NCBI GenBank assembly: GCA_011682695.1
Contig: JAACED010000012.1
Coordinates: 43,518-107,517 of the forward strand
Direction: 5' to 3'
Source: Gammaproteobacteria bacterium
GTDB lineage: Bacteria; Actinomycetota; Acidimicrobiia; Spongiisociales; UBA4744
DNA length: 64,000 bases
The notes under the pieces were generated by a model. The model had not been told where the DNA came from and searched no databases. It worked only from the letters and a program-made list of their open reading frames with translations. The position numbers and the translations under genes are program-made. Shown piece after piece: positions 7,457-63,467 of the stretch (position 1 is the first letter of the stretch; each line of letters opens with the position of its first letter).

Positions 7457-9109
7457 GTGGCGAAATACGTGTTCGTAACGGGTGGTGTGGTCTCCAGTCT
7501 TGGGAAGGGGATCACCGCATCCTCCCTTGGAAGACTCCTCAAAGCACGCGGTCTGCGCGTCGTCAATCAGAAGCTGGATCCGTATATCAACGTTGATCCG
7601 GGAACGATGAACCCCTTCCAACATGGCGAGGTGTTCGTCACCGACGATGGTGGCGAGACCGACCTCGACCTCGGGCACTATGAACGTTTCACCGGTGAGA
7701 ACCTCCGGCGGGATTCCAACGTGACCACTGGTTCGGTGTACCTGTCCGTTATTCAGAAGGAACGTCGTGGTGATTACCTCGGCGGCACCGTGCAGGTTAT
7801 TCCACACATCACAAACGAGATCAAATCGCGGATCCGACGAGTCGGTGATCGCGACGACATCGACGTAATCATCACGGAGGTGGGCGGCACCGTCGGCGAC
7901 ATCGAGAGCCTGCCGTTCCTGGAAGCGATCCGCCAACTACGCAAGGATCTCGGAGCGCACAACACCGTGTATGTGCATGTGACGCTCGTTCCCTACATCT
8001 CGGCCTCAGAGGAACTGAAGACCAAACCAACGCAGCATTCGGTGGCTGAACTGCGAAGCCGCGGCATCCACCCCGACGTGATCGTCATCCGCTCCGACCG
8101 CAAGGTCGGGTCCGACGCGATTCAGAAGATCAGCCTCTTTTGCGACGTCGATCGTGAAGCCGTTATCAACGCTCTGGACGCGCCCAGCATCTATGAAGTC
8201 CCCTTGGAGCTGCACGAGGCCGGCCTCGATGACGTGATCACCAGACGCCTTCACCTCGAAACACCGCCTCCCGACCTCGCTGACTGGCGCTCGATGGTGG
8301 AACGTGCGCGAAACGCCACCCGACTCGTCACGATCGGCCTGGTGGGAAAGTACGTCGATTTGCCGGACGCGTACCTGTCGGTCGTCGAGGCTCTGCGGCA
8401 CGCCGCTGCCGGTTCGGACTCGAAGCTGGATCTGAAGTGGATTCCCAGCGACGACATGGGTGGCCTTCTTGCGCCTGAGCATCTTGCAGGAGTGGATGGC
8501 ATCGTGGTCCCCGGCGGGTTCGGGATCCGAGGAATCGAAGGAAAGATCTCGGCCATTCGTTATGCACGAGAGAACGGTATTCCGTTCCTCGGCTTGTGCC
8601 TCGGATTGCAGTGCGCGGTCATCGAATTCTCCCGATCCGTTCTTGGGCTGACGGACGCGGACAGTGCCGAATTCAATCCGACCACGACGAACCCGGTCAT
8701 CGACCTGATGGAAAGCCAGCAGGATGTCTCGGACATGGGTGGAACCATGCGCCTCGGTCTCTACCCGGCCAAGCTCGCAGAAGGGTCTCTCGCCCGCCGC
8801 CTGTACGAGCAAGAGCTGATCTACGAGCGCCATCGGCACCGTTATGAGTTGAACAATCGCTACCGCACGGACCTCGAGAACGGCGGCATGCGCCTCTCGG
8901 GCACGGCCCCCGACGACTCGCTCGTGGAGATCATCGAGCTTCCTGGGCACCCATTCTTCATCGCGTCGCAGTTCCATCCCGAGTTCAAGTCGCGACCGGA
9001 TGATCCACATCCGTTGTTCCTCGGCCTGATTCGCGCCGCGCTCGCGAGGAGGGCAATGCCTGGGGCCGCCGTTGAGACGGTCGGCGTTCCGGAGCCGCAA
9101 AGCCGGTGA
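7457..9109 (+). CDS. pyrG: CTP synthase
   Basis: [19 protein letters not shown]... synthetase domain, GLCLGLQ glutamine amidotransferase active site. GTG start. Confidence 0.95.
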
Positions 9110-9647
9110 CACCCCTGAGGCTGATCGGTCGACGATTCCTCGCACATGGTGCGTTTCTCGATTTCGAACGACTGCACTACACGGCCTTCGACGGCCGCCA
9201 CGCCGCCAGAGAGGTCGTACATCACCCTGGCGCCGTTGCCATCGTTCCGGTCATCGGAGACGAGGTCATCCTGATCGCGCAGGAGCGGATTCTCCGATCG
9301 GAAAGCGGCTGCTGGAGATTCCTGCGGGCAAGCGCGACGAGGCCGATGAACCACTCGAAGTGACCGCGATACGAGAATGCGAAGAAGAGATCGGCTATCG
9401 GCCGGGACGTTTGATTCCGCTGGGGAGTCTCTACACGACGCCAGGTTTCAGTGACGAGAGGATTTGGCTGTTCAGGGGAGAAGACCTGGAACCGGTGCCG
9501 ACCCGACCCCAAGGGCCGGAGGAGGAAATGTCGCAGATCGTACGTCTGCCGATTCCTGAGGCGCTGCGTAGGGTTGATGCTGGAGAGATCCTGGATGTGA
9601 AGACCGTGATCGGACTTCACTCGTTGAGAAGGGAGTTCAGACCGTGA
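9106..9647 (+). pseudogene. NUDIX hydrolase (ADP-ribose pyrophosphatase NudF-like), disrupted by an apparent +1/-1 frameshift near 9289-9296
   Basis: The N-terminal part (REVVHHPGAVAIVPVIGDEVILIAQERI) is in frame 1 (track ORF 9106..9363). The Nudix box and C-terminus (LLEIPAGKRDEADEPLEVTAIRECEEEIGYRPG...) are in frame 0 (track ORF 9072..9647). A 1-nt indel in the ATTCTCC tract would restore one NudF-like ORF. GTG start overlaps the pyrG stop (GTGA). Confidence 0.6.
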
Positions 9648-10771
9648 TCATTGGAGTGCCCCGAGAGGTCAAACTGGGTGAACATCGTGTCGCCATCACT
9701 CCCGTCGGTGTACGTGAGCTCGTCGGCAGAGGCCACCAGGTCGTCGTCGAGACCCACGCGGGGGAGGGTTCGACGATCCACGACGTCGAGTACGAGGGTC
9801 AAGGCGCCCACATCGCCGCATCTGCCCGGGACGTCTTCGAAGTCGCCGACCTCATCCTCAAAGTGAAGGAGCCACAACTGCCGGAAGTCGCGATGTTGCG
9901 TGCAGAACAGGTGCTGTTCACCTATCTACACCTGGCTGCCCATCCGGATCTGACGGCAGCGATGCTCGAGCGCGGAATCATCGCCATCGCGTACGAAACG
10001 GTCGAACTTCCCAGTGGAGCACTGCCGCTGCTCGCTCCGATGTCGGAAGTGGCGGGGAGAATGGCGACGCAAGCCGGCGCCTACTTCTTGGAGAAAGCAC
10101 ATGGGGGCCGCGGCGTCCTCCTCGGCGGTGTGCCGGGGGTGATGCCGGCCAAAGTCGTCATCATCGGTGCGGGCATGGCCGGCACGAACGCCGCCATGAT
10201 GGCGGCAGGCCTCGGCGCCCGCGTGGTCGTGCTCGACAAGGACGCGGCGAAACTCCAAGCCCTCGACGCTCTGTACCGCGGCCGGATTCTGACCCTGTCG
10301 TCAAACATGCTGACCATCGAAGAACAGGTGCGGAACGCAGATCTCGTTATCGGAGCCGTGCTGCTTCCTGGAGCGTCCGCTCCAAAGCTGGTGACCGAGC
10401 CGATGGTGAAGGAGATGAAACGTGGCTCCGTACTGGTCGACATCGCGATCGATCAGGGCGGGTGTTTCGAGACGAGTCGAGAAACGACTCACAGTGATCC
10501 GACCTACATTCTCCACGACGTCGTTCACTACGCCGTCGGGAACATCCCGGGTGCGGTTCCCCACACCTCGACCTACGCGCTCACCAACGCGACCCTGCCG
10601 TACGTCTTGGCGCTCGCCGACAACGGGGTCTCGAGAGCCGTCGCCGGCCATCCGGAGCTGTTGCTGGGACTGAACATCATCGGCCCCGCCGTCGTCCATC
10701 GAGCCGTGGCGGAGAGTCTCGGGTTGGAATATGCAGATCCAACGCAGATCCTCGACCACTGGCCGCATTGA
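9644..10771 (+). CDS. ald: Alanine dehydrogenase
   Basis: MIIGVPREVK...VVETHAGEGS...; Rossmann VVIIGAGMAGTNAA. Full-length match to the Ald family. GTG start overlaps the upstream stop (GTGA). Confidence 0.9.
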   Translation: MIIGVPREVKLGEHRVAITPVGVRELVGRGHQVVVETHAGEGSTIHDVEYEGQGAHIAASARDVFEVADLILKVKEPQLPEVAMLRAEQVLFTYLHLAAHPDLTAAMLERGIIAIAYETVELPSGALPLLAPMSEVAGRMATQAGAYFLEKAHGGRGVLLGGVPGVMPAKVVIIGAGMAGTNAAMMAAGLGARVVVLDKDAAKLQALDALYRGRILTLSSNMLTIEEQVRNADLVIGAVLLPGASAPKLVTEPMVKEMKRGSVLVDIAIDQGGCFETSRETTHSDPTYILHDVVHYAVGNIPGAVPHTSTYALTNATLPYVLALADNGVSRAVAGHPELLLGLNIIGPAVVHRAVAESLGLEYADPTQILDHWPH

Positions 10772-14448: not shown

Positions 14449-15161
14449 ACGAGCGCCTCCAGAAACTCATCGCTCACTCAGGGTTCACCTCGCGCCGTGG
14501 TGCGGAGGAACTCATCAAACAAGGGAGAGTTTCGGTCGACGGTGCTCCCGCTCATCTGGGACAGAAGATCGACCCTGAGCACGCATCCGTCATGATCGAT
14601 GGAGTTCCACTCCCCGTGGCACCAGGCCTCGTCTACTACCTGCTGAACAAGCCGCCCGGAGTCGTCAGTACGGTACGCGACCCGCAGGGCCGCCGCACCG
14701 TTGTCGATATCGTCGGCAGCGAAACGAGGTTGTATCCGGTGGGACGGCTGGATGTGGAATCCGAGGGGCTACTCATCCTCACCAACGATGGAGATCTGGC
14801 TCACCTGCTGATGCACCCGAAGTTCGAGGTTGCCAAGACGTACATGGTGCTCGTCGATGCGAACCCGACCGCCCGTCAACTCCGCATCCTTCGAGAAGGT
14901 GTCGATCTGGAGGACGGGTCTGCGGCCGCGCTCTCGGCGCGGGTGATCGATCGTTCGAAGGGACAAGCTCTCATCGAGATCGTGATGGGGGAAGGACGCA
15001 AGCGTGAGGTGCGTCGGATGTGCGCCGATGTCGGCCTGCCCGTCTTGAGGCTCATTCGGACAGCCATAGGGCCGCTGCGAGATCGTACGCTTCGACCCGG
15101 GTCGTTCCGGCCATTGACCCTCGATGAAGTGCGAAGCCTCTACGCGGCAGCAGCCCCATGA
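14445..15161 (+). CDS. rluB: RsuA/RluB family rRNA pseudouridine synthase
   Basis: N-terminal S4 domain (ERLQKLIAHSGFTSRRGAEELIKQGRVSVDG), catalytic GRLDVESEGLLILTNDG. GTG overlaps the scpB stop (GTGA). Confidence 0.85.
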   Translation: MNERLQKLIAHSGFTSRRGAEELIKQGRVSVDGAPAHLGQKIDPEHASVMIDGVPLPVAPGLVYYLLNKPPGVVSTVRDPQGRRTVVDIVGSETRLYPVGRLDVESEGLLILTNDGDLAHLLMHPKFEVAKTYMVLVDANPTARQLRILREGVDLEDGSAAALSARVIDRSKGQALIEIVMGEGRKREVRRMCADVGLPVLRLIRTAIGPLRDRTLRPGSFRPLTLDEVRSLYAAAAP

Positions 15162-16441
15162 GACGCCGTATCACACCGACCACAGCCCGGGGAGAGATGA
15201 CCGTGCCGGGGTCTCGAAGCATCACGAACCGGGCCCTGGTGGCGGCCGCTCTGGCCGACGGAGTGAGTTCCCTTCGCGGGGTCCCAGTCTGCGACGACAC
15301 GCAAGCCATGATCGACGGTTTGCGCAGTCTCGGTGTGAGCATCCGCCGGCATGACGACCAGCTGTTGGTCACCGGCAGGGGCGGGAGAATCGGCAGGCCC
15401 GGAGCGGTCGTCAATGCGTTGGCTTCCGGCACGACCGCACGATTCCTGACGGCGGTCGCCTGTCTCGGTGAGCAGAAGGCCGTCGTGAACGGTGTGAAGC
15501 GGCTGCAGGAACGGCCTCTCGGGCCTCTCGTCGATGCGCTTCGCAAGATGGGCGCCCAGATTGAAGGTGAACACCTGCCCCTCCTTGTCGGAGGAGGCAG
15601 CCTCGTGGCCGGCAGCGTCGAGGTCGATGCCTCGGCTTCGAGCCAGTTCGTCTCGGCACTGGCCTTGATCGGACCCGTGATCGAGGGCGGTCTATCGATT
15701 CGGTGGGGTGAACTCGTGTCGAGACCTTTCGTCGAGATGACCGTGGAGGTCATGGCGACCTTCGGCGTGACCGTCGAGCTGTCCGATCGTGGTCTCACCG
15801 TCTCGGACCGAGCCACCTATGGGGCGGCAGAGATGTCGATTCCTCCCGACGCGGCGTCTGCCGTATACCCCGCGCTGGCCGCGGCCATCACCAGGGGCAG
15901 AGTCGTGATCAGGGGATTGCAGCGAGCCCCTTCCCAGGCAGACTTGCGAGTGTTCGACATGTTCCAGGAGATGGGTTGCCGTGTCGAGTGGAGCAGGACG
16001 GGTGTCCGCGTAGACGGTCCCGAACGCCTACGCGCGGTGGACGCCGACATGGGTAGTGCACCGGACGGAGCTCTCGCCGTGGCGATCGCAGCAGCGTTTG
16101 CCGACGGAACCTCGAGGATTCGCGGTCTGGATACGCTCGCAGCCAAGGAGAGCGACCGTACTGCCGGACTCGCCCAAGGGCTGACGGCGATGGGGGCCAC
16201 GGTCGAGGTCGAGGCCGCCGGTCTCTCCATCACTGCCGGCGATCCTCGTGAAGCGACCATCGATCCACATGCAGATCATCGCATGGCCATGGTGTTCTCT
16301 GTCGCCGGGCTCGGCAGGAAGGGGATCCGCGTTGAGGACAGCGACTGTGTGGGCAAGACGTGGCCCGGCTTCTATGAGGACATGAATCGGATCTGTGGTT
16401 CGAGCTGGGCACGCCCAGACCCCCGGGAATCTGCCGAGTGA
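15158..16441 (+). CDS. aroA: 3-phosphoshikimate 1-carboxyvinyltransferase (EPSP synthase)
   Basis: VPGSRSITNRALVAAALADG, LGEQKAVVNG, DASASSQFVSAL, ADHRMAMV motifs. ATG at 15158 overlaps the rluB stop (ATGA). An internal ATG at 15197 (MTVPGS...) is an alternative start. Confidence 0.9.
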   Translation: MRRRITPTTARGEMTVPGSRSITNRALVAAALADGVSSLRGVPVCDDTQAMIDGLRSLGVSIRRHDDQLLVTGRGGRIGRPGAVVNALASGTTARFLTAVACLGEQKAVVNGVKRLQERPLGPLVDALRKMGAQIEGEHLPLLVGGGSLVAGSVEVDASASSQFVSALALIGPVIEGGLSIRWGELVSRPFVEMTVEVMATFGVTVELSDRGLTVSDRATYGAAEMSIPPDAASAVYPALAAAITRGRVVIRGLQRAPSQADLRVFDMFQEMGCRVEWSRTGVRVDGPERLRAVDADMGSAPDGALAVAIAAAFADGTSRIRGLDTLAAKESDRTAGLAQGLTAMGATVEVEAAGLSITAGDPREATIDPHADHRMAMVFSVAGLGRKGIRVEDSDCVGKTWPGFYEDMNRICGSSWARPDPRESAE

Positions 16442-16461: not shown

Positions 16462-16672
16462 GCGACACCTCCCAAGACCCCCTCCGTCCTCGGCAGGACT
16501 TTCCAAGACCCCCTCCGTCCTCGGCCAAAGCCCCGAGGACACCTCCCCCAACGCTCGCCAAGACCCCCTCCGCCCTCGGCCAAAGCCCCGAGGACACCTC
16601 CCCCAACGCTCGCCAAGACCCCCTCCGTCCTCGGCCAAAGCCCCGAGGACACCTCCCCCAACGTCGGCCTTG
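16462..16672. repeat. 55-bp tandem repeat array (about 3 full copies plus a degenerate leading copy) in the aroA-cmk intergenic region
   Basis: Unit CCAAGACCCCCTCCG(T/C)CCTCGGC + CAAAGCCCCGAGGACACCTCCCCCAACGCTCG recurs at about 16503, 16558 and 16613 (period 55). A partial copy lies at about 16472. The array is C-rich on the plus strand. No coherent coding frame (55 is not a multiple of 3). Confidence 0.85.
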
Positions 16673-16678
16673 CGGCCT

Positions 16679-16720
16679 CCTGGGGGAGGAAACGGCCCTC
16701 GCTGGGGGAGGAAACGGCCG
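16679..16720. repeat. Two copies of a 22-bp direct repeat (CTGGGGGAGGAAACGGCC...) immediately after the 55-bp array
   Basis: TGGGGGAGGAAACGGCC at about 16681 and again at about 16703. Confidence 0.6.
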
Positions 16721-16800: not shown

Positions 16801-17433
16801 ATGGAGCACCTCGTGATAGCGATCGACGGGCCGGGAGGATCCGGTAAGACCACGGTGAGCCGCGCTCTCGCCAAGGCTCTCGGAGTGGCACATCTGGATA
16901 CCGGTGCGTTCTATCGAGCGGTTACTCTCGCGGCACTTCGGGCGGGACTCTCCGCTCCATCGGACCTGGCCGCTCTCGCGGAGCGCATCGATCTGCGGTA
17001 CGAGGACGGGCACATGTATCTCGATGGGGAAGACGTCTGCGAGGCAATCCGTTCAGAAGCCGTCAATGCGTTCGTGTCGGTGGTCAGTGCAGAGCCGGCC
17101 GTGCGTAGGGCAATGGTGGAACGCCAACGGCGCTGGGTGGAGGAGCATGGTAACCGGGCTGTCGTCGAGGGACGGGATATCGGGACCGTAGTGTTCCCCC
17201 ACGCGGAACTGAAGATCTTCCTCGTTGCACGCCCAGAGATCAGAGCCTCACGGCGGGCCCATGAACTCGACTCCCCCGGAGTAGAGAACGTGAAACAGGA
17301 CCTCGCGCGGCGCGACCACCTGGACTCTTCTCGCGCCGTGTCACCGCTGAGCCCGGCAGAAGACGCAGTCACGCTCGACACCTCGGACGTGACCGTGCCC
17401 GACGTCGTCGAGCATATCCTGACTCTGCTCTGA
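16801..17433 (+). CDS. cmk: Cytidylate kinase
   Basis: MEHLVIAIDGPGGSGKTTVSRALA... P-loop; full-length Cmk. Confidence 0.9.
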   Translation: MEHLVIAIDGPGGSGKTTVSRALAKALGVAHLDTGAFYRAVTLAALRAGLSAPSDLAALAERIDLRYEDGHMYLDGEDVCEAIRSEAVNAFVSVVSAEPAVRRAMVERQRRWVEEHGNRAVVEGRDIGTVVFPHAELKIFLVARPEIRASRRAHELDSPGVENVKQDLARRDHLDSSRAVSPLSPAEDAVTLDTSDVTVPDVVEHILTLL

Positions 17434-21975: not shown

Positions 21976-22050
21976 CGGGCTGTGGCGCAGCTTGGTTAGC
22001 GCGCTTGACTGGGGGTCAAGAGGTCGCCGGTTCAAATCCGGCCAGCCCGA
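21976..22050 (+). tRNA. tRNA-Pro (anticodon GGG)
   Basis: Cloverleaf read by eye: acceptor CGGGCTG/CAGCCCG, D-arm GCGCAGCTTGGTtAGCGC, anticodon stem CTTGA/TCAAG with loop CTGGGGG (anticodon GGG), T-arm GCCGG-TTCAAAT-CCGGC, discriminator A. CCA is not encoded. Coordinates +/-1-2. Confidence 0.75.
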
Positions 22051-22052
22051 CC

Positions 22053-23533: not shown

Positions 23534-24514
23534 ATGACCAAGACCATCGGCGAACCCAGGGGGCAGCAGCCTCGCCGGCCGATCGTCGATCGTCCCCGAC
23601 GCCGTGGCGATCGCGTCTTCCGGCGCGCCACACTGGCGGCGGCGGCCGTCGTGCTGCTCCTCCTCGCCATCATGATCGTGTCGACCACCATCGCATCGCT
23701 CCCCGTATGGCGATCCCAAGGCATCGTCGGGTTCCTCCTCGGGATGCGCTGGGTGCCGAACAAGGCCATTTTCGGAGCCTTCCCCTTCATATACGGCACG
23801 GTCGTCACCGCACTCATCGGCGTCCTCGTCGGTGTCCCCATCAGCGTGCTCATCGCCCTCTACATCTCGGAGGTCGCCGGCCCGAAGGTCGCAGGCCCGG
23901 TGTCGTACCTCATCGACCTCCTCGCCGCCATCCCTTCGGTCGTCTACGCGCTCTGGGGCATCTTCGTCTTCGTCCCCTACGTGGTGAAGCCGATCTCCGA
24001 TCTTCTCGCCCGATACCTGGGCTGGACCGGCATCTTCGAGGGTCCCGTCTTCGGCCTCTCCTACCTCTCGACCGGACTCGTCCTCTCGATCATGATCGTG
24101 CCCATCATCAGCGCCATCTGCCGAGAAGTCTTCGCCACCGTCCCTGCGGGAGAGAAGGAGGCGGCCCTGGCACTCGGAGCAACGCGCTGGGAGATGATCC
24201 GCCTCGCGATCCTGCCGCGTTCCCGCCCGGGCATCGTCGGTGCGGTCATGCTGGGTCTTGGCAGGGCCCTCGGCGAGACCATTGCCGCCGCGCTGCTCAT
24301 CGGATCTCAGGTGGGCATCCACCTCTCTGTCGTCCAACCCGGCTACACGATGGCAGCGGTCATCGCCAACCAGTTCCAGGAGGCCGACGCGGCGCAGATC
24401 AGCGCTCTCCTCGGCATCGGCGTCGTCCTCTTCTTCATCACCATCGTCGTGAACGTGCTGGCGCGCATCGTCGTGGCGCGCACCGGAGGCACCCTCGTGT
24501 CGGCGGATCTATGA
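23534..24514 (+). CDS. pstC: Phosphate ABC transporter permease PstC
   Basis: Polytopic permease with EAA-like loop (EAALALGATRWEMI). ATG after GGAGGAG. Confidence 0.9.
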   Translation: MTKTIGEPRGQQPRRPIVDRPRRRGDRVFRRATLAAAAVVLLLLAIMIVSTTIASLPVWRSQGIVGFLLGMRWVPNKAIFGAFPFIYGTVVTALIGVLVGVPISVLIALYISEVAGPKVAGPVSYLIDLLAAIPSVVYALWGIFVFVPYVVKPISDLLARYLGWTGIFEGPVFGLSYLSTGLVLSIMIVPIISAICREVFATVPAGEKEAALALGATRWEMIRLAILPRSRPGIVGAVMLGLGRALGETIAAALLIGSQVGIHLSVVQPGYTMAAVIANQFQEADAAQISALLGIGVVLFFITIVVNVLARIVVARTGGTLVSADL

Positions 24515-25380
24515 CCACGGCACCCGTATCACTGGGCAGGCCCCTCTCGGCTCGCCGTCGGCTCGCCGACCGTCTGGCGCTCACCGCCATGTACGCCGCG
24601 GTCGGGGTGTCGCTCATCCCCCTTGCCCTCATTGCGTACTTCCTCATCGTGCGCGGCCTGGGGGCGATGAGCTGGGAGTTCCTCACCAGCTCCCAGCCCC
24701 TCAGCTATGTCCAGCACGGTGGCGGTGCACTCAACGCTCTCGTCGGCACCCTCTACATGGTCGGGCTTGCCTCCCTGCTCGCCGTCCCGCTCGGTATCGC
24801 CGCCGCCATCTACCTCAACGAGTACGGCTCCGGCCGGTTCGCAGCCGTCGTCCGCTTCTTTGCCGATGTCATGACGGGCGTGCCCTCGGTCTTCGTCGGG
24901 CTCTTCATCTACACCCTTCTCATCGTTCCCACGTCGCTCGGGTTCTCGGCCATGGCCGGAGGGATGGCCCTCGCTCTCATCATGCTGCCCATCATCATCC
25001 GCTCGACCGAAGAGATCCTCCGGCTCGTCCCTCCGAGTCTGCGGGACGCCAGCGCGGCATTGGGAGCCACCCGGGCGTACACGATCATGAAGGTCGTGCT
25101 CCCTGCAGCGCGTCGCGGGATCACTACGGGGGTGATGCTCGCCGTCGCTCGCGCCGCCGGGGAGACCGCGCCCCTGATCATGACCGCGCTCGGATCGGTC
25201 CAGCTCGTGTTCGGCTGGACCATCCCGATCTCTGCGCTTCCGCTCTTCATCTACGACGGGGCCCGCAACCCGTTCGCTGCGGGACAGCAACGCGCCTTCG
25301 CTGCGGCCGCCGAACTCCTCGCCATCGTCCTCGTCTTCACCGTCACCGCCTCCCGACATGACCGGGGGCTTGGCCAATGA
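24511..25380 (+). CDS. pstA: Phosphate ABC transporter permease PstA
   Basis: ATG overlaps the pstC stop (ATGA); permease motif [20 protein letters not shown]. Confidence 0.9.
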
Positions 25381-33537: not shown

Positions 33538-34613
33538 TGACCGATCACCTGAGGGCTCCTGAGACCCGACCCCTGATCCAGGAGCCGTTGTGGCGCGTGC
33601 GCGTTCGGCTTGCCTGGCGCGGATTCCGCAGCGGCTGGTCTTCCTTCGTCGAGAATCGCATCGGGCTGGTCGGTCTCTCGATCATCGTCATCTACGGACT
33701 CGCTGCGCTTTCTCATCCCCTCCTGATGAAGTACGTCTGGGATCCTGGCGTCTACGACCCTGTCATCGGCTACGACGCTCCCCTTCAGGAGAAAGTGATC
33801 GTTCCTGACAACGAGGTCACCGACACGAGTACGGAGATTGATCTCTTCAGCGCTCGCCTCATCAACCCGCTTCTGAAAGTGGGTGACACGATGGATATCA
33901 CGCTGCAGCCGGCGCCCCCGTCGCGCGCACACTGGTTGGGTACGGACCCGTTAGGCCGTGACGTGCTCTCTCAGCTCATGTTCAGTACACGCGCTGCGTT
34001 CATGCTTGGCATCGTCGCTGCACTCGTCACCGTAGGAATCGCCACGACTGTCGGCGCGGTGTCTGCCTTCTTTGGCGGGATAGTCGACACCCTGTTCATG
34101 AGGCTCGCCGACCTGATCATCCTCGTACCGTTCCTCCCGATCCTGATCGTGCTGTCGGCGCTCATCCACTTCGAATTGCTCCACCTTGCGGTGTTGATTG
34201 GGGTCCTGTCAGGTTTTGGAGGCACAGCCATCATCCTCAAGTCCCAGGCGCTGTCGGTATCGGTAAAACCATTCATCGACGCCGCCCGCGTTGCCGGAGG
34301 CGGTCGGATGCATCTGATCTTCCGCCACATCATTCCCAACGTTCTGCCCCTCAGCTTCCTCTACATGATGTTCTCGGTCACGGATGCCATCTCCATCGAG
34401 GCGACGCTGTCGTTCCTCGGATTGATGAACATCAACATGAGCTGGGGAATCATGATCTACACGGCAAACTCTCAGGGATATCTTCTGTCGAGCGCCAGCT
34501 ACTGGTGGCTGCTGTTCCCCGCGGGACTGTCGGTGACACTGCTGGCCGGTTCTTTCTACCTGGTCGGAAGAGCGATGGACGAGATCATCAACCCAAGGCT
34601 GAGGAGACGGTAG
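33537..34613 (+). CDS. ABC transporter permease (DppC/OppC-like)
   Basis: GTG overlaps the upstream TAG by 1 nt; N-terminal OppC-like extension plus a permease core. Confidence 0.8.
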   Translation: MTDHLRAPETRPLIQEPLWRVRVRLAWRGFRSGWSSFVENRIGLVGLSIIVIYGLAALSHPLLMKYVWDPGVYDPVIGYDAPLQEKVIVPDNEVTDTSTEIDLFSARLINPLLKVGDTMDITLQPAPPSRAHWLGTDPLGRDVLSQLMFSTRAAFMLGIVAALVTVGIATTVGAVSAFFGGIVDTLFMRLADLIILVPFLPILIVLSALIHFELLHLAVLIGVLSGFGGTAIILKSQALSVSVKPFIDAARVAGGGRMHLIFRHIIPNVLPLSFLYMMFSVTDAISIEATLSFLGLMNINMSWGIMIYTANSQGYLLSSASYWWLLFPAGLSVTLLAGSFYLVGRAMDEIINPRLRRR

Positions 34614-62543: not shown

Positions 62544-63467
62544 ATGACTGACATACGTGCCGTTGAAATCGGTGACCACGTCTACGCAATCGACGCTTGG
62601 ATGGAAGGCCGGTCCGAGCGTCTCGCCTGCTATCTCTTCGACACTCCTGAGCGAGTGCTCGTCGAAGTTGGCCCCTCTGCAACACTCGGGCATCTGATCG
62701 AAGCACTCGACGAGCTTGGGGTGGATGATCTGGCGGCATTCGTCGTCACTCATATCCATCTCGATCATGCGGGCGGGGCCGGGCAGATGGCGAAGCGATA
62801 CCCCAATGCAAAGGTGGGAGTGCACTCTCGGGGAGCAAGGCATCTCGTACACCCGGAACGCCTGTGGACTTCGGCCATTCAGGTCTTCGGAGAAGAGTGG
62901 CTCACCTCCGAATGGGGTCCCATGGAGCCTGTGGATTCCGAACGCATAATGGTTCTCGACGAGGGAGACCGAGTTCCCCTGGGCAACGGAAGGTACCTCG
63001 ACGTCATGTACACGCCAGGGCACGCGAAGCACCATGTCGTCTACCAGGATTCGGACGGCGGCGGCATGTTCGTCGGTGACGCCCTCGGGCTGTGCTATCC
63101 ACACGGGCACTTCGTTCAACCCGTGACGCCGCCGCCGGATTTCGATCCCGACGCGCAGATCGCACAGATGAGGAGAATGGCGCAGCGTCGTCCGACTTTC
63201 CTCGGGTTTGCCCATTTCGGCCCGCGTTACGACATAGAAACCACACTCAACGAAGCTGAAGAACGCTTGCGCGAATGGGTGGAGGCGGTGTCGACATTCT
63301 CGGGAATGTCAGATGAGGCAGCGGGCGAAGCCCTCAGGGTGTGGACGGCAGAGAAATATCGTGCCTTTGGCTATCCGGAGGATGCGATCGCCTCGTACGC
63401 CGAGAAGACCAATTGGCCGATGCAGGCCGCCGGGATCAGGCGATGGCTAGCTGCACAGGAAGACTGA
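62544..63467 (+). CDS. MBL-fold metallo-hydrolase
   Basis: HIHLDHAGG motif, additional His/Asp ligands (…TPGHAKHH…). Confidence 0.75.
   Translation: MTDIRAVEIGDHVYAIDAWMEGRSERLACYLFDTPERVLVEVGPSATLGHLIEALDELGVDDLAAFVVTHIHLDHAGGAGQMAKRYPNAKVGVHSRGARHLVHPERLWTSAIQVFGEEWLTSEWGPMEPVDSERIMVLDEGDRVPLGNGRYLDVMYTPGHAKHHVVYQDSDGGGMFVGDALGLCYPHGHFVQPVTPPPDFDPDAQIAQMRRMAQRRPTFLGFAHFGPRYDIETTLNEAEERLREWVEAVSTFSGMSDEAAGEALRVWTAEKYRAFGYPEDAIASYAEKTNWPMQAAGIRRWLAAQED

Follow-up and report, generated by a model that had tools for sequence, protein, structure and literature searches.

Organization of the locus

The window (the whole stretch of DNA analysed here, 64,000 nucleotides) carries a gene for a NUDIX protein between pyrG and ald, with all three genes on the forward strand. 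The upstream gene, pyrG (7457..9109), encodes a CTP synthase of 550 amino acids, as judged from the list of open reading frames and from the Pfam domains CTP_synth_N and GATase on the identical gene in two near-identical assemblies (see below). The downstream gene, ald (9644..10771), encodes an alanine dehydrogenase of 375 amino acids (NIA24646.1). At both junctions the genes overlap as GTGA. The pyrG TGA (9107-9109) overlaps the NUDIX GTG start at 9106, and the NUDIX TGA (9645-9647) overlaps the ald GTG at 9644. This arrangement, pointed out in a preliminary description of the locus, can be read directly in the window, and in the orthologous loci compared the relatives have identical 4-nt overlaps at both ends of their NUDIX gene. 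Moreover, the gene order of the block nadK-recN-pyrG-nudix-ald-xerD-dksA-like-M50 protease-HD-scpA is identical in relatives.

The NUDIX gene is read in two frames

In the window, the NUDIX gene is split between two reading frames. An 85-amino-acid open reading frame at 9106..9363 covers the N-terminal part of the protein (…REVVHHPGAVAIVPVIGDEVILIAQERI…), whereas the Nudix box and the remainder (PIGKRLLEIPAGKRDEADEPLEVTAIRECEEEIGY…) are in a different frame that runs to the stop at 9645-9647. The first of these frames (frame A) encodes residues 1-62 of an intact 179-residue protein, P0001, between 9106 and 9291, ending …LIAQERI; its residues 1-62 are those of P0001, save that the GTG start is written V or M. 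It then continues as an out-of-frame tail (LRSESGCWRFLRASATRPMNHSK; 9292..9363) to a premature TGA at 9361-9363, such that the frame-A product consists of 62 native and 23 nonsense residues. The second frame (frame B; 9294..9647) encodes the native C-terminal part from Pro63 to the end (PIGKRLLEIPAGKRDEADEPLEVTAIRECEEEIGY…REFRP*), holds the Nudix box and is 100% identical to P0001 residues 63-179.

Two further lines of evidence bear on the split. First, GC content by codon position follows the high-low-high pattern of the neighbouring genes (0.66/0.42/0.73 in pyrG) on both sides of the break, with 0.76/0.40/0.69 in frame A (9106-9291) and 0.67/0.46/0.64 in frame B (9294-9647). Second, the Pfam NUDIX profile (PF00293) matches the C-terminal piece alone with 36.7 bits and the repaired protein with 44.6 bits (cut-off 21.1), the latter match covering profile positions 2-118 and spanning the junction, while the 85-amino-acid frame-A product has no Pfam match. 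The open reading frames, the codon-position GC and the Pfam match across the repaired junction thus bear out the earlier observation that the gene breaks near 9290.

Identity of the NUDIX protein

On its PF00293 match, which is above the gathering threshold, the gene is assigned to the NUDIX superfamily. The Nudix box GKRDEADEPLEVTAIRECEEEIGY (9327-9398) reads G-x6-E-x7-REUXEEXGU, compared with the canonical pattern GX5EX7REUXEEXGU; the core E-x7-REUXEEXGU is canonical and the spacing from G to E is one residue longer than in GX5E. This longer spacing is kept in all 14 aligned homologues. A Pro at +15 after the box (…YTTPGF…; P113) is invariant among the aligned homologues, and a Pro about 15-16 residues past the Nudix box is what we take to be a signature of the ADP-ribose pyrophosphatase subfamily.

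The matches to solved structures point in the same direction. The top 10 solved chains are ADPRases, NudF or the Bacillus methanolicus activator protein (E-values from 2e-25 to 6e-16), and the intact allele matches 8zr8, 8wv3 and 9jax with E about 1e-25, 1mk1 with 4e-21 and 5c7q with 5e-20. The best matches are NudF/AdpP-type structures, i.e., 8zr8_A ("methanol dehydrogenase activator"), 8wv3_A and 9jax_E ("ADP-ribose pyrophosphatase") and 5c7q ("NudF protein"), with E-values from 2e-25 to 5e-20. Of these, 8zr8, 8wv3 and 9jax align to residues 29-174 of the intact protein, and the 8zr8 and 8wv3 alignments run without gaps through the junction (…QYRKPLEKSIVEIPAGK… vs …QERIPIGKRLLEIPAGK…). The structures and the intact protein have in common the REUXEEXGU core and the Pro 15 residues past the box; the relationship is a moderate one, at about 75-93 bits.

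Many of the JGI homologues are named "ADP-ribose pyrophosphatase". The best-scoring NCBIfam families are NudE (NF008736; 54.1 bits) and TIGR00052 (YffH/AdpP; 51.3 bits), and both scores are under the curated cut-offs (169 and 79.55, respectively). The description of the gene as NudF- or ADP-ribose-pyrophosphatase-like nevertheless agrees with its nearest solved relatives, which are ADPRases and NudF, even though TIGR00052 is below its cut-off. The NUDIX protein is therefore, on homology, probably an ADP-ribose (or ADP-sugar) pyrophosphatase, and it would be expected to convert ADP-ribose into AMP and ribose-5-phosphate.

The two frames are separated by a TC duplication

The site of the break was identified base by base against two near-identical sequences, the 135-kb ENA scaffold SONG20-1_SAMN10739805_METAG-scaffold_12 and the Logan contig SRR8443421_90832 (run SRR8443421), and by alignment with five more distant orthologous loci. 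Where the window reads GGATTCTCCGATCGG, the ENA and Logan contigs read GGATTCCGATCGG, with a gap at 9291-9294. Hence, the intact allele ATTCCGATC corresponds to ATTCTCCGATC in the window. The near-identical and the related DNA are both without the two bases, which identifies the lesion as a gain of 2 nt, a tandem duplication that turns TC into TCTC at 9291..9294 on the forward strand (ATTC[TC]CGATC). Which of the two TC copies is the extra one is undecidable from the alignment.

Removal of one TC gives exactly the 179-amino-acid protein of the other assemblies. In the preliminary description, the break was instead attributed to the loss of one base from a homopolymeric tract within ATTCTCC. 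This is not what the comparison gives: the window has two extra nucleotides relative to the near-identical assemblies, the local C run at the lesion is CC only, and the duplicated unit is a dinucleotide that borders a 12-bp palindrome on its 5′ side. The suggestion that a single-base correction would restore the gene is right in one respect, as one C added at 9295 produces a single open reading frame of 180 amino acids with a NUDIX match across the junction. However, this repair creates an extra Leu (…QERILPIG…) that is present in 0/14 of the aligned homologues, and for this reason removal of TC is the preferred repair.

The palindrome is 12 bp long in the intact allele (TTCCGATCGGAA), and the duplication at its 5′ edge cuts it to a perfect palindrome of 10 bp in the window (TCCGATCGGA; 9293..9302). 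It is not conserved, relatives having TTCCGGTCGGAG at this position. A second copy of the sequence that spans the insertion might explain a mis-join, but the search for one returned partial matches at chance level only. Rfam and tRNA scans of the window gave nothing near the lesion, the sole hit being a tRNA-Pro at 21976-22052.

The frameshift is private to one record

Neither the ENA scaffold nor the Logan contig has the two extra bases, and both encode the intact 179-amino-acid P0001. The alignment of the Logan contig with the window (7,655 bases matched) has the 2-base gap as its sole difference, and that of the ENA scaffold (19,647 bases matched) has the 2-base gap and one SNP at 16628. 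The repaired protein, used as the query, retrieved P0001 (179 amino acids, 99% identical) together with thousands of single-ORF homologues, those listed being about 175-185 amino acids long. In 14/14 aligned homologues, down to 50% identity, the junction reads …Q-x-R-x-P-(V/I/L/T)-G… and has no extra residue. The TC pair is also absent from the five further orthologous loci (78-86% protein identity), in which synteny and the 4-nt overlaps are kept. A scan of GTDB genomes with the intact protein found, among the matches listed, relatives of ≤48% identity, mostly MAGs of Acidimicrobiia/Acidimicrobiales.

All the orthologues inspected (50-86% identity) are single open reading frames with the same spacing. 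The orthologue comparison called for in the preliminary description is thereby answered: neither an orthologue nor another same-population assembly has the two-ORF arrangement, so that a conserved split gene finds no support. The same holds for a fixed pseudogene, in that the lesion is not shared by relatives and, outside it, the gene matches the intact allele at 100% identity. Searches for the products of the frameshifted gene agree with this picture. The 85-amino-acid product is absent from a collection of 15 billion proteins, and the window's 191-amino-acid open reading frame (P0012, identical to NIA24645.1), which the search with the repaired protein also retrieved, on a contig of 144,592 bp, is present in the NCBI record only. 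A scan of JGI metagenomes for either allele, with a variable gap, gave no match, and literature searches on the run, sample and protein accessions found nothing relevant. As far as the sequences compared go, the frameshift is private to this record, and the other same-population assemblies and the relatives are intact. Being private to the record, the lesion represents neither the population nor the lineage.

PyrG and Ald proteins identical to those of the window occur only in NCBI, in one ENA assembly and in one Logan run, which suggests that a single read set may underlie all three assemblies. The comparison was extended to the full 64 kb of the window against the ENA scaffold and Logan contigs. 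Between the window and the ENA scaffold there are six differing sites: the TC insertion at 9291-9294, a 12-nt deletion in pstA, and SNPs at 16628, 34223, 52060 and 62738. Both indels are private to the window's record, and both are unlike the state in close relatives. The SNPs at 34223, 52060 and 62738 are coding, and all three are synonymous, while that at 16628 lies between genes, in a tandem repeat with a 55-bp unit. The Logan contig sides with the window against the ENA scaffold at 34223, whereas at 62738 both other assemblies disagree with the window. The synonymous SNPs and the Logan agreement at 34223 are consistent with real microdiversity in the sampled population.

Consequences for the product and its annotation

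In frame B there is no start codon between a TTG at 9072 and a GTG at 9360. The TTG is inside pyrG and lacks a Shine-Dalgarno-like sequence, and the GTG is past the Gly and the first Glu of the Nudix box, also with no Shine-Dalgarno-like sequence upstream. A product initiated at 9360 would be without the N-terminal domain and part of the Nudix box. The insertion allele, if real, would thus be a null allele that yields a fragment of 62 native residues with a nonsense tail of 23 and no functional C-terminal product. The premature TGA of frame A (9361-9363) overlaps the frame-B GTG at 9360 as GTGA, in the manner of the true gene junctions; this resemblance is probably a coincidence.

It had been suggested that a real frameshift would also affect the initiation context of ald. 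This concern is weaker than stated, as ald has its own Shine-Dalgarno-like sequence, AGGGAG at 9630-9635, 8 nt 5′ of its GTG. If the insertion is real, ald should still be translated from this ribosome-binding site, while termination-reinitiation coupling to ald would presumably be lost.

The annotated product, NIA24645.1 ("NUDIX domain-containing protein", 191 amino acids, 9072..9647 on the forward strand), starts at the TTG inside pyrG. Over roughly its first 73 residues the entry translates the true N-terminal domain out of frame, into an Arg-rich sequence, which identifies it as an annotation by-product of the frameshift. It is a chimera of a wrong-frame N-terminus and the true C-terminus, and it needs to be replaced by the 179-amino-acid protein or flagged as frameshifted.

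Origin of the two extra bases

Collectively, the data can be accommodated by a model in which an ordinary conserved gene of the ADP-ribose pyrophosphatase type is broken in this contig alone by the change of TC to TCTC at 9291-9294. The two extra bases would be an artefact that arose in this one assembly, during assembly or consensus calling, and the gene in the organism would be a single open reading frame of 179 amino acids. The comparisons show what the lesion is, where it lies and that it is absent from the other sequences; that it is an artefact is the reading we take as the most likely, with a probability of roughly 0.5. Four observations favour this reading. Two private indels, the TC insertion and the 12-nt deletion in pstA 16 kb away, fall within 64 kb of one assembly. 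Two indels against four SNPs also exceed the indel share that we would expect of natural coding variation. Moreover, the allele is in no other record and the frameshifted products are in no other source, and 3′ of the lesion the gene agrees fully (100%) with the intact allele and shows no secondary decay. On the other hand, assembly of Illumina reads on a de Bruijn graph requires several reads carrying the same 2-nt insertion for it to enter a contig; if the record was produced in this way, the insertion would be a real minority allele. The synonymous coding SNPs and the in-frame indel likewise look like microdiversity filtered by selection, which argues against an artefact and for the window being a slightly different haplotype.

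The strongest competitor takes the insertion as real. The TC duplication may be a real, recent loss-of-function allele in a sub-population of the Acidimicrobiia-like organism, with one assembler following the null haplotype and the other two the intact majority allele. We hold this to be a serious possibility, if at somewhat less than even odds. The other differences between the assemblies look biological, the coding SNPs being synonymous (3/3) and the 12-nt indel in-frame, and the agreement of Logan with the window at 34223 would fit the presence of both alleles in the sample, provided that the run and the ENA sample are the same. In addition, a dinucleotide tandem duplication beside a 12-bp palindrome is a typical product of replication slippage, short-read graph assemblers rarely invent indels, and enzymes of this class are usually dispensable. 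However, the allele occurs in no second record, every relative, down to 50% identity, has the gene intact and conserved, and two private indels in 64 kb represent a high ratio of indels to SNPs for natural variation. Such an allele would also be a null, and selection on a conserved gene should keep nulls of this kind rare. The options named in the preliminary description, a sequencing or assembly error or a genuine pseudogene with phase variation unlikely, still cover those that remain.

It is very improbable that the two-frame arrangement is functional, either as a programmed -1 ribosomal frameshift from frame A to frame B near 9291-9296 or as reversible, phase-variable slippage of TC. In formal terms, frame B is reached from frame A by a -1 shift, and the site has a minimal (TC)2 repeat next to a palindrome, but G GAT TCT CCG (9288-9296) contains no slippery heptamer of the type X XXY YYZ, no orthologue and neither of the two other same-population assemblies has the arrangement, and the palindrome is not conserved in relatives. 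Appreciable slippage requires tracts far longer than two repeat units or a CC run of 2. A search for a phase-variable tract at the lesion found only (TC)2 and CC, and Tandem Repeats Finder reports nothing there. Hence, there is no support for a programmed frameshift, for phase variation or for a conserved split gene. We also attach very little weight to the idea that TC/TCTC is a real and reversible length polymorphism, arising by slippage at the edge of the palindrome TTCCGATCGGAA and serving in part of the natural population as an on/off contingency switch of an ADP-ribose pyrophosphatase in a housekeeping operon. The least probable reading, refuted by the base-by-base comparisons, is a homopolymer-type sequencing error in which one C was lost from a short homopolymer in ATTCTCC: a C inserted at 9295 does restore a 180-amino-acid frame with a NUDIX match across the junction, but the repaired protein has a Leu found in none of the 14 aligned homologues, and the near-identical assemblies reveal exactly two extra bases in the window and no missing base.

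Whether the two bases are an artefact or a minority allele, the population consensus and the lineage carry an intact, ordinary gene. The significance is one of data quality only. If the insertion is real, it would be a routine segregating null allele in a gene that is probably dispensable, and neither reading adds anything new on NUDIX enzymes, recoding or operon organization.

Other features of the window

The deletion in pstA (24511..25380) removes 12 nt (CGCACGCTGGAT) after 25346, in-frame and near the 3′ end of the gene; the segment is present in the ENA scaffold and is flanked by a 3-nt CGC microhomology. Four residues are lost, changing …TVTARWIASRH… to …TVTASRH…. The resulting 289-amino-acid PstA (NIA24662.1) is found in the NCBI record only, whereas the protein is 293 amino acids long in Logan, in ENA and in most other members of the protein cluster.

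The intergenic region between aroA (15158..16441) and cmk (about 16811..17433) contains a 55-bp unit repeated 2.9 times with 98% identity (16503-16663), each unit carrying an 8-bp hairpin (GTCCTCGG…CCGAGGAC); this repeat is followed by a 22-bp unit present twice (CCTCCTGGGGGAGGAAACGGC; 16676-16719). By coordinate arithmetic, the Logan contig ends inside the 55-bp repeat, and in this repeat the window and the ENA scaffold differ by one repeat-copy SNP, at 16628. The 55-bp repeat region has no Rfam match, and its fold z-score is only -2.5. The repeats may represent a terminator array or an element of the REP type.

The NCBI record is labelled "Gammaproteobacteria bacterium". The closest named homologues of the NUDIX and PstA proteins belong to Actinobacteria/Actinomycetota or to the unclassified bins BMS3Abin02/BMS3Bbin01, and more distant named homologues to Acidimicrobiia. 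The gene order recN-pyrG-nudix…xerD is, as we understand it, actinobacterial. The contig is probably mis-binned or the MAG mislabelled.

Comparison with known systems

Among proteins of known structure, the ADPR pyrophosphatase 1mk1/5i8u matches the intact protein with an E-value of 4e-21 over residues 12-170, with the N-terminal domain included, although the two are distant in sequence. We take this protein to be Rv1700 of Mycobacterium tuberculosis. The Rv1700 gene immediately follows pyrG (Rv1699) and precedes xerD (Rv1701), an actinobacterial neighbourhood like the one described here. The present locus differs from that of Rv1700 in that ald separates the NUDIX gene from xerD and 4-nt overlaps are present at both ends of the NUDIX gene.

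With respect to the lesion, the closest parallel is the class of private frameshifts in MAGs, which comprises assembly or consensus indels as well as rare null alleles. As in those cases, one small indel interrupts an otherwise perfectly conserved gene, neither independent assemblies nor relatives carry the change, the gene shows no secondary decay, and a longer wrong-frame open reading frame has been rescued by the annotation pipeline. The sole distinction is that such frameshifts are usually homopolymer length errors, whereas the NUDIX gene of this contig carries a dinucleotide duplication.
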